This document shows positions 4,798-35,532 of a stretch of DNA of 64,000 nucleotides, piece after piece (the first letter of the stretch is position 1; every line of letters starts with the position of its first letter). Below the pieces are notes generated by a model that saw only the letters and a list, made by a program, of their open reading frames with translations, was not told the origin of the DNA and ran no database searches. This DNA is from a phage, in the sequence record PZ171035.1; one strand, given 5' to 3'. Both the position numbers and the translations under genes were made by a program.

Positions 4798-5057
4798 TGA
4801 CATATGAAGAACTATGGGCTGCTCAGGTCAGAGCCAGAGCACTCACACGGCATGACATCTATTGTGCATTACAGAACGAATTAAAGGGACGTACTAAGCT
4901 AGGTCACATATCAGGTTTCATTAAAATACCTATGCGTAGTCTAGTATGGCCTTATAAAGAAAAAAGTAATGAATTTAGCGGTAATGGTTTATATGTACGT
5001 ATCAACTACCTTGGTCAAGAGAACAATATTCGTATTGCCTTTTGGACTAAGCGTTAG
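4797..5057 (+). CDS. hypothetical protein
   Basis: 86-aa ORF, ATGA overlap with upstream gene, terminator hairpin downstream. Confidence 0.4.
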   Translation: MTYEELWAAQVRARALTRHDIYCALQNELKGRTKLGHISGFIKIPMRSLVWPYKEKSNEFSGNGLYVRINYLGQENNIRIAFWTKR

Positions 5058-5062
5058 GTAAT

Positions 5063-5084
5063 AGCTGCTCCGCAGCTTTTGGTT
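5063..5084 (+). terminator. intrinsic terminator
   Basis: AGCTGC-TCC-GCAGCT hairpin followed by TTTGGTT. Confidence 0.5.
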
Positions 5085-5110
5085 ATTAATAACATTTAGG
5101 AGAATATGCG

Positions 5111-5929
5111 ATGTACTCATCTATTGAACATCAGAAGCAGCTTGAAGTCCTTTTTAACAAAAACCAATTACTGCCTCGCATGAGGAAGGAATTCGAGGAC
5201 TCCAAAGAAATTGACTTTAAGGCATTCGCTGCCTATTTAGAAATTGATTATAAGCTGCTCATTGATGCAATGGTGCAGATTGCCCTACATAAACGTGCTG
5301 ACATCCAGACTATGATTGGCTCTCTCATGAGTCACTCAGATGATGCTCAGTACATCGCTGACTGTCTGTATAAGATGGCAGAGAATGACTGCTTCAACTA
5401 TGACCCTACCATCGACAAGTTCGGTGTTATCTATGAGATTAGTGAAGATGTTCAGATGGAACTGGAAGCATTCCAGTATCCATTACCAATCGTCAGTAAA
5501 CCTAAGCCTGTCCTGACTAACCGGGACACTGGTTACTATGAGTCTAAAGGCTCAATCATCCTCAAGAAGAACCATCATGAGATGGACGTCTGCCTTGACC
5601 ACATTAACCGCATGAACAACCAACGTCTCTGTATTAACTGGGACGTTGCTAACTATGTAAAAGACTCTCGTCCTAACATGGATAAACCCAAAGAGGGTGA
5701 AACCCGTCAGGATTATGAGAAACGTGTTAAAGCCTTTGAGAAGTACAGTCGTACTGCTAAGGAAGTAATGGAGTTAGTAACCAAAGAGGGCAATAACTTC
5801 TCGCTAGCGCATAAGTATGACAAGAGGGGCAGAACCTATGCCTGTGGATACCACATTAACTATGCGGGGACTTCATATAACAAGGCAGTGATTGAATTTG
5901 CAGATAAAGAACTAGTAAACGAGGATTAG
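5111..5929 (+). CDS. RNA polymerase II small subunit (N4 gp15-like, N-terminal part of a split T7-like RNAP)
   Basis: 272 aa, immediately upstream of the catalytic subunit; size and order match the N4 heterodimeric RNAP II; RBS aggagaa. Confidence 0.6.
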   Translation: MYSSIEHQKQLEVLFNKNQLLPRMRKEFEDSKEIDFKAFAAYLEIDYKLLIDAMVQIALHKRADIQTMIGSLMSHSDDAQYIADCLYKMAENDCFNYDPTIDKFGVIYEISEDVQMELEAFQYPLPIVSKPKPVLTNRDTGYYESKGSIILKKNHHEMDVCLDHINRMNNQRLCINWDVANYVKDSRPNMDKPKEGETRQDYEKRVKAFEKYSRTAKEVMELVTKEGNNFSLAHKYDKRGRTYACGYHINYAGTSYNKAVIEFADKELVNED

Positions 5930-5930
5930 T

Positions 5931-6512
5931 ATGAAGACATGTTCAGTATGTAAGAAGAACTTGCCTCTGGACATGTTCAATAAACAGTCCACTGGCAAAC
6001 AGGGTGTTAGGGCAGACTGTAAAGACTGCCTTAAACGCTTTATCCGTTCAAAACACGGAGTCATTAATCAGATGTACTCCGGTTGTATCAGTAGAACCAA
6101 GAAGAAGGGATTTACTTCCGTATCCTTCACTAGGGAGGAGCTAGAGAAATGGGTATATTCATGCAAAGAATTTCACACATTGTATGACAAGTGGGTATTG
6201 GAAGATTATCCAACTGCCTTGAAACCTAGCTTAGACAGACTGGATGATTACAAAGGTTATTCCCTGGATAACATTCGTATTGTTACAGCCAATACCAACG
6301 TAAAGAGGTACTACTCTGATGCAATCAACGGCATCAATACTAAATCAGCTAAGCCCGTTGAGCAGTACTCGCTAGATGGTGAATACATTAGGACATTCCA
6401 TTCACTTAGTGCTGCTGCACGAAGTGTTAATGGTATACCTTCTAATATTAATCAAGTAATTAATGGTACGTATGCGCAAGCATATGGCTATAAGTGGAAA
6501 CTAGGAGCCTAA
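5931..6512 (+). CDS. homing endonuclease-like protein (degenerate HNH-like core with NUMOD-like C-terminal DNA-binding motif)
   Basis: 193 aa; N-terminal CxxC...CxxC, LDRLDDYKGYSLDNIRIV HNH-like segment (His replaced by Arg), C-terminal ...SAAARSVNGIPSNINQVINGTYAQAYGYKWK typical of free-standing HEG DNA-binding tails. Confidence 0.5.
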   Translation: MKTCSVCKKNLPLDMFNKQSTGKQGVRADCKDCLKRFIRSKHGVINQMYSGCISRTKKKGFTSVSFTREELEKWVYSCKEFHTLYDKWVLEDYPTALKPSLDRLDDYKGYSLDNIRIVTANTNVKRYYSDAINGINTKSAKPVEQYSLDGEYIRTFHSLSAAARSVNGIPSNINQVINGTYAQAYGYKWKLGA

Positions 6513-6513
6513 G

Positions 6514-7731
6514 ATGCAGATTTTCACAGCTAAAGAATATTTAAAAATTGATATTGCCAATTCTTACGGGCTGGATAAGAAGACATGGGATGAACGTATT
6601 AGCTGGTTCGATGAGAACGAAGCTAACCTGCTTAATCTGGTAGATGAAGCAGAAGAATCCGCACTGTTCTATGCAGGTGTAAACGCATGGAAAGATATGA
6701 AAGCCGGTAAGCCTATCGGTTATGCCGTAGCTCTGGATGCTACATCATCAGGCTTACAGTTACTGGCTTGCCTGACTGGTGACCGTTCTGCTGCTGAACT
6801 GTGTAACGTAGTTAACTACATGGGCGAGAATGGTAAGCCATTACGTCGTGATGCTTATACAGTTATCTATCACAAGATGCTGGACATCCTTGGTGAAGCA
6901 TCACGTATTAAACGTAGTGACACTAAGCAAGCAGTTATGACTGCATTCTACGGTTCAGAAGCCAAACCTAAAGAAGTATTCGGTGAGGGTATCCGTCTCA
7001 AGACTTTTGAGAATGTAATGGAAACGGTTGCTAGTGGTCCTTGGGCATTGAACAAGTTCTTACTGCAATGTGGTAACCCGGATGCTAACCGTTACGTATG
7101 GGTACTGCCTGACAACTTCCATGCTGTCATTAAGGTCATGGTTCCAGAGGTACAGACTGTTAACTTCTTAGGAAAACCATTCGACATCACTCGTATGGTT
7201 CAGGGTACTGAAGAGAAGACTCGTATGCTCTCTGCTAATATCACTCACTCTATTGATGGGATGGTGGTACGTGAGATGCTGCGTCGTTGTAACTTCAACA
7301 TGAACCAGGTGAGCTATGTTAAGTCACTTTGTGAAGGAACCTGTGATTACATGGTAGGTACTAGTGAGAATTACGACATGGTTAGCCAACTGTGGCATAG
7401 CTATGAGAAATCAGGTTTCCTGTCTACCCGCATCTTTGATTATCTGGATTCCGACTCAGTTAAACTGGTTGATACAGATGTAGTGCTGGCTATGCTGAAC
7501 ACTCTGCCTAAGAAATCATTCCCTGTAATGACCGTACATGACTGCTTCCGTTGCCATCCTAACTATGGCAATGACCTGCGTCGTCAGTACAATCAGATTC
7601 TGTCTGACATTGCTAAGAGTGACCTACTGGGCTTCATTCTGTCTCAGGTACTGGGGCAAGAGTTCTCTGCTGGTAAGCTGGATGACAGCCTCTGGCAGGA
7701 CATTCTCGAAACAGACTATGCATTAAGTTAA
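6514..7731 (+). CDS. RNA polymerase II large/catalytic subunit (N4 gp16-like, T7-like single-subunit RNAP C-terminal part)
   Basis: 405 aa; T7 RNAP-like motifs ALDATSSGLQLLA (cf. DGSCSGIQH) and VHDCFRCHP (cf. HDSFG motif C). Confidence 0.8.
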   Translation: MQIFTAKEYLKIDIANSYGLDKKTWDERISWFDENEANLLNLVDEAEESALFYAGVNAWKDMKAGKPIGYAVALDATSSGLQLLACLTGDRSAAELCNVVNYMGENGKPLRRDAYTVIYHKMLDILGEASRIKRSDTKQAVMTAFYGSEAKPKEVFGEGIRLKTFENVMETVASGPWALNKFLLQCGNPDANRYVWVLPDNFHAVIKVMVPEVQTVNFLGKPFDITRMVQGTEEKTRMLSANITHSIDGMVVREMLRRCNFNMNQVSYVKSLCEGTCDYMVGTSENYDMVSQLWHSYEKSGFLSTRIFDYLDSDSVKLVDTDVVLAMLNTLPKKSFPVMTVHDCFRCHPNYGNDLRRQYNQILSDIAKSDLLGFILSQVLGQEFSAGKLDDSLWQDILETDYALS

Positions 7732-7761
7732 TAAACTAGCCTCATTCCTTCGGGAGTGAGG
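7729..7761 (+). terminator. intrinsic terminator after RNAP II operon
   Basis: GCCTCATTCC-TTCG-GGAGTGAGGC hairpin followed by CTATTTTTTG. Confidence 0.65.
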
Positions 7762-7971
7762 CCTATTTTTTGCTTGGAGGTAATAACTATGCTAATCCTT
7801 TTTGAAGTAATCTTTCAGCTAATACTGATAGTTTTATCTGTACTAGTTCTGACTACGATAGTCCGTGCCCACAAATCTAAGTTTGCTTATTACTACTACG
7901 GAGCATACTCACTAGGCTGCTTTGTAATAGCAGGATGGATAGCTTTTGCTATCTACTGTGTAAACAACTAA
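7756..7971 (+). CDS. hypothetical membrane protein
   Basis: 71 aa, two predicted TM helices, RBS ggagg upstream. Confidence 0.4.
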   Translation: MRPIFCLEVITMLILFEVIFQLILIVLSVLVLTTIVRAHKSKFAYYYYGAYSLGCFVIAGWIAFAIYCVNN

Positions 7972-7999
7972 CCCTCTTAACGGAGGGTTTATTTTTTTA
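7972..7999 (+). terminator. intrinsic terminator
   Basis: CCCTC-TTAAC-GGAGGG hairpin followed by TTTATTTTTTT. Confidence 0.6.
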
Positions 8000-8045
8000 T
8001 CTGTCATGTATACTAACTCTGCTATTTACTTATGAGGAAATTGAT

Positions 8046-9925: not shown

Positions 9926-10240
9926 ATGGCAAGCATCGACTCCTTGACTGTATGTAATTCACGTCAAGCTCGTAACTTTATTATCCGTGCCCTGAAAGCA
10001 GGTAACGTACCGTTCCTGACTTCATCACCTGGCATGGGTAAATCTGCAATCATTCGTTCTATTGCAGAAGAATTTGGTATGAAGTTAATTGACCACCGTC
10101 TATCTACTTCTGCCCCGGAAGACCTGTCTGGCTTACCTTTCCGTAATGGTGACCGTGCAGAGTTTATTCCATTCGCTGACTTATTCCCCATTGAGGGAGA
10201 CGAAGTACCAGAAGGCTATAATGGCTGGCTCTTATTCCTT
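9926..10240 (+). CDS. MoxR-like AAA+ ATPase, 5' exon (Walker A through start of Walker B)
   Basis: Walker A SSPGMGKS; ORF runs into a stop right after ...GWLLFL(N); the rest of the ATPase resumes about 880 bp downstream. Confidence 0.6.
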
Positions 10241-11121
10241 AACTAACGGGGCTTCATGAGAGCAATCTCATGTCGAAAGTTACCTAAACAGGGAACCTCT
10301 TCTAAACTGGTTGGCTCAAGTGTATACTTGAGTTTTAATCAATTGGAGACAATCCTGTGCTAAATAATGAAATTTGGAAAGATGTGCCCGGCTTACCGTA
10401 TGAAGTTTCCAACTTTGGCGTAGTACGCCGAAAGGAAGGAAAGTATAAATACAAAAACAGGACACATATAAAACCGTATCTTAATAACAAAGGATACTAC
10501 TGCGTGAACCTGTACATGAATAGTAAAGTGTACAAATACCAAGTTCACCGTCTGGTAGGATTAGCCTTTGTACCAAACCCTAATAACTATCCTGTTATTA
10601 ATCATATAGATGGAAACCCTCTTAATAACCACGAGAGTAACCTGGAATGGTGTACCCAGTCTCATAACATGAAACATGCTTGGGATACTGGACTGCAAAC
10701 AAACAGGCACGCTAATGCTAGTAATAAAAATCGTGGAGGCTCCTCCAAATATGTAGGCGTATCCTGGAGTGAGCAAAGACAAAGATGGTGTGCCCATATA
10801 AGGGTTAACAAGAAATCTATTGGTTTGGGACGTTACAAAACAGAGGAAGAAGCTGCTAAAGCTTACGACTCCTACGTAACTAATAACAATCTTACACAGA
10901 TTGGGTACAGTACCAATTTCATTTAAACGCCAAACGACTATCGAAAACACACAGAAATGTGGAAGTGAGTAGAGTAGGGTGCAAGCCAATGGCACTCGAA
11001 ACGGTAACAGCCCTAGCAATAGGGCTTTGATATAGTCTCCTCTGCATGGTGACATGCAGCAGTCAGTATTCACTGAGTGTACTGACGGCATTAGTAGTTG
11101 CGAACTAATGTGAAGATAATG
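10241..11121 (+). mobile_element. candidate self-splicing (group I-type) intron carrying an HNH-AP2 homing endonuclease; boundaries approximate
   Basis: Insertion separates two halves of one ATPase; 5' exon ends in T, insertion ends in G; joining 10239|11122 gives ...LLFL-DEFNSAKKEVV... restoring Walker B; no RBS before the downstream half. Confidence 0.5.
10357..10926 (+). CDS. HNH homing endonuclease with NUMOD4-like N-terminus and AP2 DNA-binding domain
   Basis: GTG start with GGAGA RBS; EIWKDVPGLPYEVSNFGVVR (NUMOD4-like), HRLVGLAFVPNP...NHIDGNPLNNHESNLEW...HN (HNH), KYVGVSWSEQRQRWCAHIRV...GRYKTEEEAAKAYD (AP2). Confidence 0.8.
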   Translation: MLNNEIWKDVPGLPYEVSNFGVVRRKEGKYKYKNRTHIKPYLNNKGYYCVNLYMNSKVYKYQVHRLVGLAFVPNPNNYPVINHIDGNPLNNHESNLEWCTQSHNMKHAWDTGLQTNRHANASNKNRGGSSKYVGVSWSEQRQRWCAHIRVNKKSIGLGRYKTEEEAAKAYDSYVTNNNLTQIGYSTNFI

Positions 11122-11860
11122 CGATGAGTTTAACTCAGCTAAGAAAGAAGTAGTAGCTGCTGCATACAAACTAATTCTCGACCGTATGACTGGTCAGAAA
11201 AAACTCCATCCTAATGTGATGATTGTCTGTGCTGGTAACAAAGCTACCGACCGTGCCATTGTTAACCCACTGGGTACTGCAATGCAGTCTCGTGTGATTC
11301 ACTTCGAGATGGAACTCAACTTCGACATCTTTGTTGAAGACGTAATGATTCCTCAGCAATGGGATGAACGTCTGGTTGCATTCTTACATGCTAACCCAGG
11401 TTATCTGCATGACTTCGACCCAGCCCATAAGAACAAAACATTCTGTTGTCCACGTACTTGGGACTTTGTTAACAAAGACCTCAAGAATCAGCCGGAAGGT
11501 GCTCTGCCTGATGAAGATTCTATCTACTATGCAGGTCACGTTACTGCCGGTAAAGCTACAGAATTTGTTCAGTTTACTCAGGTATATAATCGTATCATTA
11601 CGATTGAGAAGGTAGTCAAAGACCCACTGGGCTGTGCATTACCGGAAGATAACAACCTGTGCTGGGCTACCGTTAACCATCTGGCTAACAAAACTACTGA
11701 AGAGAATTTCGCTGAAGTTCTTCAGTACATTGAACGCTTTAAAACGTTCACCCATAAGATTCTGTACTTCCGCACAGTAGGCAAAGCATTACCAGAAATT
11801 CAGGCTACACCTGAATGGCGTAAGGCTGCTGCTAATGTCTCTCGTTACATTCACGGGTAA
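11122..11860 (+). CDS. MoxR-like AAA+ ATPase, 3' exon
   Basis: In-frame sequence DEFNSAKKEVVAAAYKLILDRM...NVMIVCAGN (Walker B DE, sensor region) precedes the first ATG at 11186; fits the continuation of the 9926-10240 ATPase. Confidence 0.5.
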
Positions 11861-35366: not shown

Positions 35367-35442
35367 TACCCGGTAGGCTTAGTGGTAAAGCCCCACTAGT
35401 AAACCAACTAGGACGCAGGTTCGAATCCTGTCCGGGTAGCCA
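35367..35442 (+). tRNA. tRNA-like gene C (76 nt; canonical acceptor, D and T arms; non-canonical anticodon loop)
   Basis: Acceptor TACCCGG/CCGGGTA, D-arm GGCT-TAGTGGTAA-AGCC, T-arm GCAGG-TTCGAAT-CCTGT, G + CCA; anticodon arm folds only as CTAGT/ACTAG with 6-nt loop or CTAG/CTAG with 8-nt loop. Confidence 0.5.
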
Positions 35443-35447
35443 TTTAT

Positions 35448-35532
35448 GCCCACTTAGCTCAGTGGTAGAGCGCAGGAAAGCTTCGAGAGAACAAGGTGTC
35501 TGTGGTCACTGGTTCAAATCCAGTAGTGGGTA
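35448..35532 (+). tRNA. tRNA-like gene D (85 nt; canonical acceptor, D and T arms; anticodon region not foldable by eye)
   Basis: Acceptor GCCCACT/AGTGGGT, D-arm GCTC-AGTGGTA-GAGC, T-arm ACTGG-TTCAAAT-CCAGT; 35-nt segment between D and T arms. Confidence 0.45.

Follow-up and report, generated by a model that had tools for sequence, protein, structure and literature searches.

The open reading frame (ORF) that separates the two genes for the RNA polymerase (RNAP) II subunits in this phage is likely an active, free-standing homing endonuclease gene, associated with neither an intron nor an intein. By analogy with the restriction enzyme PacI, its active site is probably a conserved, PacI-like and tyrosine-dependent one. 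We analyzed a window of 64,000 nt, one strand of phage record PZ171035.1, in which the ORF occupies 5931..6512. The region is 90-95% identical to Gamaleyavirus genomes (G7C-like N4-like coliphages, Schitoviridae), and the endonuclease gene is ∼97% identical to gene 15.1 of Escherichia phage vB_EcoP_G7C (AEL79623.1), which is annotated as a 'putative HNH homing endonuclease'. Amgarten et al. 2017 described this HNH endonuclease of G7C between RNAP1 and RNAP2 (PMC5418858). Given that annotation and that description, both the object and its general interpretation were already known, and for the locus itself the result matters little, the gene having been annotated in G7C for years. What we add is modestly new: a PacI-type active site common to a very large family that has no curated domain model, and, again modestly, a slot with multiple occupants and a linked haplotype of eight sites.

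Direct reading of the sequence gave an ORF of 193 aa on the + strand, starting with ATG (Table 1). As the preliminary description had stated, it is preceded by a ribosome-binding site (RBS; GAGGA, 5921-5925) and sits between the two RNAP II subunit genes. It also adjoins both flanking genes, but the 2-bp spacing reported there is a coordinate difference: the gp15-like gene ends with TAG at 5929, the gp16-like gene starts at 6514, and the spacers on either side of the ORF are the single bases 5930 and 6513. The upstream gp15-like gene has ∼92% nucleotide identity to G7C gp15. No terminator-like sites were found between gp15, the endonuclease gene and gp16, and a strong one follows gp16. A scan for sigma-70-like promoters returned fewer sites than in shuffled sequence and is thus uninformative. 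The endonuclease gene would be co-transcribed and translationally coupled with gp15 and gp16 while using an RBS of its own. We also considered an intron- or intein-encoded endonuclease and rejected it, since the genes on both sides of the ORF are complete, with start and stop codons of their own; an Rfam scan of positions 5000-8000 gave no family at its gathering score. No further copies of the endonuclease family were found elsewhere in the window. Two adjacent tRNA genes on the + strand at 35367-35532 (Rfam tRNA, 39 and 54 bits) are ordinary for N4-like phages.

Table 1. Features at the junction of the RNAP II subunit genes (positions in the window)
Feature	Coordinates	Strand	Evidence or remark
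RNAP II small subunit gene (N4 gp15-like), upstream flank	5111..5929	+	phrog_2166 'N4-like RNA polymerase', E 8e-116
Shine-Dalgarno GAGGA of the endonuclease ORF	5921..5925	+	5 nt before ATG, within the last gp15 codons
Likely free-standing homing endonuclease gene, G7C gene 15.1 ortholog	5931..6512	+	phrog_1035, E 7e-29, full length
N-terminal zinc ribbon, C4/C7/C30/C33	5931..6038	+	Cys conservation; aligns to PacI residues 1-46
Predicted beta-beta-alpha-metal (His-Me finger) core, probably PacI type	6225..6326	+	AlphaFold2 model, residue conservation, PacI and I-HmuI alignments
C-terminal DNA-binding domain (NUMOD1 / I-HmuI-like helix-turn-helix)	6345..6509	+	Pfam NUMOD1
Shine-Dalgarno AGGAG for gp16	6503..6507	+	Lies within the final codons of the endonuclease gene
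RNAP II large subunit gene (N4 gp16-like), downstream flank	6514..7731	+	phrog_2051, E 2e-176; Pfam RNA_pol, E 1e-14
Carrier-linked haplotype block, gp16 5′ end	6519..6567	+	8 fixed differences, gp16 nt 6-54
Terminator-like hairpin and T-run closing the gp15-endonuclease-gp16 unit	7739..7762	+	Strong site, after gp16

The three protein segments named in the preliminary description were all recovered. Its N-terminal CxxC...CxxC segment corresponds to C4/C7/C30/C33, and the C-terminal tail, which had been called NUMOD-like, matched Pfam NUMOD1 above the gathering score at residues 141-174 (E 8e-8; 32.8 bits versus a cut-off of 22.8). Between them, an atypical HNH-like core with Arg at the usual His position had been noted; this is LDRLDDYKGYSLDNIRIV (residues 101-118), and the residue in question is Arg103. 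Residues 1-135 are covered by no Pfam or NCBIfam model: the canonical HNH Pfam models did not match the ORF at E up to 1, and no NCBIfam model exceeded its cut-off. An AlphaFold2 model (pLDDT 92.5) contains strands at residues 99-103 and 115-119 and a helix at 120-132; strand 1 closes with Asp102-Arg103, the loop holds Tyr110, and strand 2 and the helix contain Asn114 and Asn123, respectively. In this predicted structure, the beta-hairpin and alpha-helix that form the core fold of the His-Me finger / HNH superfamily are thus present. The catalytic His of the superfamily, located at the end of strand 1, is absent, and its position, opposite the His of I-HmuI, is taken by Arg103. The metal ligand in the helix (N123) and the structural Asn of strand 2 (N114) are both present, and both align with Asn residues of I-HmuI and PacI.

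When compared with the PDB, a family profile (112 sequences) matched I-HmuI (E 1.6e-4) and, in two co-linear segments, PacI (E 3.6e-3). The PacI segments were the zinc ribbon (PacI 1-46, MTQCPRCQ...CKGC) and VDRSDSFEGYSPQNARLACFICNRIK (PacI 91-117); this match is weak (E ∼4e-3), with no single matched stretch significant alone. Foldseek with the predicted structure likewise gave I-HmuI (E 2.6e-4) and PacI (E 2.9e-3 over 136 columns). A single-sequence search of the PDB sequences returned chance-level matches only, and the links to PacI and I-HmuI needed family profiles. The core (PSvDR...N...N) was aligned both to VDRSDSFEGYSPQN..CN of PacI and to the VDH..N..N motif of I-HmuI. In the PacI alignment, the sole Tyr of the PacI loop SDSFEGYSPQN falls on Tyr110, the Asp-Arg pair on Asp102-Arg103 and the Asn on Asn123. 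PacI is an active His-Me nuclease that lacks the His; its loop Tyr acts as the base or nucleophile, and its one metal is held by Asp and Asn (PMC5714182, PMC4081073, PMC3384342). The assignment of the catalytic Tyr rests on two reviews and on there being a single Tyr in the PacI loop. The evidence for membership in a PacI-like clade, taken from sequence comparison, is consistent but individually weak, and the view that the protein works like PacI, drawn by analogy, is better supported. By this analogy, Asp102 and Asn123 would hold a single divalent metal and Tyr110 would replace His as the base or nucleophile, with the invariant Arg103 occupying the usual place of the histidine.

The Arg at the His position had previously been taken as a degenerate motif and as a possible sign that the gene is decaying or re-purposed, a view that our conservation data contradict. 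We searched with a profile of the nuclease domain (residues 1-138); of the 16,703 clusters (50% identity) that it matched at E ≤ 1e-3, 825 reached E ≤ 1e-30. In the best 149 representatives, Arg103 and Tyr110 were each present in 149/149 and Asp102 in 148/149; Asn123 was found in 147/149 (His in the other two) and Asn114 in 142/149, while each of the zinc-ribbon cysteines (C4, C7, C30, C33) occurred in at least 147/149. Among homologs down to 38% identity, P99, S100, D102, R103, D106, Y107, Y110, L112, N114 and N123 were invariant. The invariance of the Arg at the 'His position' marks it as a family signature under selection, not as a lesion, and the motif it belongs to matches that of PacI. 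Furthermore, all six phage copies are intact 193-codon ORFs without a frameshift or stop, with a mean dN/dS of 0.08, as compared with 0.05 for gp15 and 0.14 for gp16. On these sequence data the gene is intact and selectively maintained, and we see no decay; selection this strongly purifying would be just as compatible with a gene domesticated for a beneficial function.

These data bear directly on the idea of a catalytically dead, decaying or re-purposed endonuclease that only binds DNA, for example as a regulator of RNAP II expression. The replacement of the general-base His by Arg and the missing HNH Pfam match agree with such a protein, as does the tight embedding of the gene in the RNAP II operon, where it supplies the RBS of gp16; pure DNA-binding His-Me domains also exist, as exemplified by SMAD MH1 (PMC5714182). 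Yet in inactive His-Me groups the His and the Tyr are both missing (PMC5714182), whereas here the Arg and the PacI-type Asp, Tyr and Asn are invariant or nearly so in the best 149 representatives, and the six copies are uninterrupted and under purifying selection. Most close relatives also lack the gene, which is hence not needed for RNAP II expression. We therefore consider a dead DNA binder improbable and favor an active nuclease.

As to the wider family, we see an even chance that the ORF represents a very large group of free-standing phage homing endonucleases, uncurated as a family, which all use a PacI-type Asp-Arg...Tyr...Asn site and not the canonical His. If this is true, the 'orphan' PacI would have branched off from a lineage of homing endonucleases, and His-Me catalysis that depends on Tyr would be no curiosity but common among phages. 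Some of the metagenome representatives of the family (P0037, P0042, P0040 and P0046) contain 2-4 tandem nuclease domains in 300-570 aa, with four matched stretches in the 532 aa of P0037; these could be real nucleases or fused calls of adjacent endonuclease genes.

Among related phages, the endonuclease gene was present in 7 of 68 records, corresponding to five distinct phages plus RefSeq duplicates. We compared the junction in 15 Gamaleyaviruses, six carriers and nine non-carriers. In line with what the preliminary description had proposed to look for in related N4-like phages, most have the subunit genes without the ORF; in phiG17 and EC1-UPM, for instance, the junction is an empty spacer of 55-56 bp with a conserved hairpin and the gp16 RBS. 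The preliminary description had also named a pattern that would speak against a homing endonuclease, namely the ORF in all relatives and no endonuclease-family match; we found the ORF in a minority of relatives and matches to endonuclease families. In other phages the slot is filled differently: it is taken up by small ORFs in PhAPEC5/7 and 24-32N, by a gene for a 204-aa protein of the same endonuclease family (∼30% identity) in HK2 and pSb-1, and by one of two distinct HNH_3+AP2 endonuclease genes in UE-S5a and PW8. Across the relatives, the slot thus holds at least four different endonuclease genes. All of the alternative occupants retain the 55-bp spacer beside gp16, and the G7C-type gene alone replaces this spacer, with its hairpin and RBS, and abuts gp16. 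Since the Gamaleyavirus flanks are ∼90% identical, whereas what they enclose is either unrelated or 30% identical, exchange of the occupants has been recent. Judged from these genome comparisons, sporadic presence together with a precise empty site is the classic pattern of free-standing homing endonuclease genes. We also asked whether the small slot ORFs of PhAPEC7 and 24-32N are endonuclease remnants and rejected this, as they showed no blastn or tblastx similarity and no Pfam match.

The spacer hairpin of non-carriers (L006 1364-1418, L016 1431-1486) occurs in two sequence versions at the same place, GGCTCTCC-ATAG-TGGGGAGCC and GAGCC-AAT-AGGCTC, with the gp16 RBS after it in each case. Lacking a T-run, the hairpin is not a terminator. 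In the endonuclease ORF, the final codons (CTAGGAGCCTAAG) are similar to the 3′ arm of the GGCTCTCC-ATAG-TGGGGAGCC version.

Family members are also found in the same slot of more distant genomes, namely Vibrio phage pVco-7 (39% identity) and a 70-kb N4-like metagenome contig (49% identity), as well as in unrelated contexts, including rV5-like, Vibrio and other phages. In Schitoviridae generally, the genes for the two RNAP II subunits lie from ∼40 bp (N4-type phages) to >1 kb apart. The occurrence in the same slot of distant Schitoviridae could be taken to mean that the gene is an ancestral resident of the junction and a relic of the RNAP split, inherited vertically, lost many times and no longer mobile. 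Indeed, a split of the ancestral RNAP by an endonuclease insertion has been published: Amgarten et al. 2017 proposed that a homing-endonuclease insertion gave rise to the two N4-type subunits by splitting a T7-like ancestral RNAP (PMC5418858). Our finding that gp15 and gp16 match contiguous parts of the T7-like RNAP profile phrog_414 (positions 227-425 and 428-595) fits such an event. However, slot endonucleases that are 30% identical or unrelated between flanks of ∼90% nucleotide identity require recent replacement, and N4-type phages have adjacent subunit genes without an insert. We thus regard an immobile relic as very improbable, and a recently mobile endonuclease gene remains the reading we prefer. 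In pVco-7 (L007 3632-5728), the RNAP II large subunit seems to be further fragmented: downstream of the family member that fills the gp15/gp16 slot a 149-aa 'RNA polymerase' ORF precedes a 182-aa ORF that weakly matches the zinc-ribbon part of the endonuclease profile (E 3e-7).

A sliding-window comparison of the six carriers with the nine other phages revealed a difference directly beside the insertion. Within the first 60 nt of gp16, identity between carriers and non-carriers was 0.65, as compared with 0.90 and 0.88 within the two groups, and in the rest of gp15 and gp16 the between-group identity equalled that within groups. All eight sites at which the groups share no allele lie at gp16 nt 6-54, with none elsewhere in 2,037 aligned nt; the block reads ATGCAGATTTTCACAGCTAAAGAATATTTAAAAATTGAT in carriers and ATGCAACTGTTAACCGCTCGTGAATACCTGAAAGTAGAT in non-carriers. 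We tentatively propose this block as a candidate that contains the target of the enzyme, or is tightly linked to it, although we put the chance somewhat below even. Carriers would then hold a resistant version of the target, passed on along with the gene as a co-conversion tract. Alternatively, the haplotype could be the end-point of one past recombination and not a target or immunity site. In carriers, gp16 nt 22-60 are 79-82% identical to L021, a metagenome contig that represents the other carrier lineage, versus 62-69% for non-carriers, and nt 1-21 show the opposite trend. This signal is small and no more than suggestive that an L021-like donor supplied the 5′ end of gp16 together with the gene.

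From the architecture and the comparisons above, we infer catalysis, the position of the target and homing of the phage endonuclease as follows. The C-terminal NUMOD1/helix-turn-helix domain would anchor the enzyme on a long, asymmetric DNA site, and the N-terminal module, consisting of the Cys4 zinc ribbon, a helical linker and a core of beta-beta-alpha-metal type, would cut or nick nearby. During mixed infection, the enzyme would act on the gp15/gp16 junction of a non-carrier, most likely within the first ∼55 nt of gp16, and recombinational repair from the carrier genome would copy in the gene together with the adjacent resistant haplotype at the gp16 5′ end.

An active PacI-like nuclease might instead serve competition or host takeover, cutting host or rival phage DNA, and not home to this locus. 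The nearest solved catalytic domain is that of a restriction enzyme, purifying selection fits a benefit to the phage, and viral PacI homologs have been proposed to be viral restriction enzymes (PMC5714182). Against this stand the I-HmuI/NUMOD1 DNA-binding module, which is typical of homing endonucleases, the several unrelated endonuclease genes at one junction, which point to locus-specific mobility, and the carrier-specific haplotype directly next to the insertion. We judge a role in competition without homing to be about as improbable as a dead DNA binder; the two activities are not mutually exclusive, because homing itself causes marker exclusion. Under the homing interpretation, the polymorphic slot (empty, with small ORFs or with four endonuclease types) and the eight-site haplotype make a convenient natural system for studying homing and target immunity.

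Further variable tracts occur in both subunit genes. At 7294-7533 (nt 781-1020), gp16 contains a hypervariable tract with 63-81% identity, versus ∼94% elsewhere. This tract lies just upstream of nt 1032, where an HNH_3(+AP2) gene splits gp16 in Shigella phage Moonfish and in metagenome contig L021 (L008 4616-5523; L021 4629-5559), and either scars of co-conversion or a variable target site, belonging to a second endonuclease or intron, may account for it. A similar hypervariability marks the final ∼150 nt of gp15.

A second, probably mobile, element is present in the window. The AAA ATPase gene (N4 gp24-like, 9926-11860) is split at Walker B (LLFL|DE) by a precise 882-bp insertion, at ∼10241-11122, relative to ECBP1. 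The HNH-AP2 gene that the preliminary description had placed at 10357 lies on this insertion as an ORF at 10357..10926 with NUMOD4, HNH_3 and AP2 domains. A weak match to the Rfam group I intron at 10872-11059 scored 22 bits, below the gathering score of 50. If the boundaries are moved by 1 nt, U becomes the last base of the 5′ exon and G that of the insert, and splicing would still give a Leu codon; for these reasons the insertion is probably a mobile group I intron. It was present in only 3 of 59 related records. Together with the sporadic endonuclease gene and the polymorphic slot, this insertion bears out the homing-endonuclease traffic that had been surmised for this genome. In G7C-like phages, g16 is known to contain an intron that is spliced, and their DNA polymerase is split by an endonuclease insertion that is not (bioRxiv 10.1101/542787).

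Several known systems resemble parts of the phage protein. T4 endonuclease VII, whose name is attached to phrog_1035 and to many GenBank records, is likewise a zinc-containing His-Me finger nuclease, but it has a different architecture and its His-containing motif is absent from the phage protein. We rejected membership in this family (Pfam PF02945), as E values up to 1 included no match to Endonuclease_7. The label 'endonuclease VII' seems to be a misnomer carried over from the rV5 annotation. Considering the conserved PacI-like site under purifying selection, annotators should drop both this label and that of a degenerate HNH.

PacI (PDB 3ldy/3m7k; His-Me finger group 20, Jablonska et al. 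2017; PMC5714182) is a homodimeric type II restriction enzyme of 142 aa that recognizes an 8-bp site. It has two Cys4 zinc sites per subunit and no NUMOD/HTH tail, whereas the phage protein has the N-terminal Cys4 site only, a helix reading TANTN where PacI has CFICN, and an extra C-terminal DNA-binding domain; the sequence similarity between the two is marginal (17-20% identity). I-HmuI, the HNH nicking homing endonuclease of Bacillus phage SPO1 (PDB 1u3e), has a C-terminal DNA-binding domain that aligns with the NUMOD1 tail of the phage protein, but it has the canonical Asp-His as its general base, is encoded within an intron and has no zinc ribbon at its N terminus.

In its genomic setting, the gene resembles those of T4 MobE and other free-standing phage endonucleases (Mob, Seg), which also lie sporadically between conserved genes. 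The C-terminus of a T4-type MobE is 42.6% identical to the C-terminal 68 residues of the phage protein, and T4 MobB was among its structural matches; for the Mob and Seg endonucleases, only the DNA-binding module is common at the sequence level. The closest known counterpart is G7C gene 15.1, which has the same position, the same length (193 aa / 582 bp) and the same 1-nt spacers. The two genes differ at the sequence level only, with a dN of 0.029 between the copies. The phage studied here is nevertheless a different mosaic from G7C, as it also has the U1G-type insertion in its ATPase gene.
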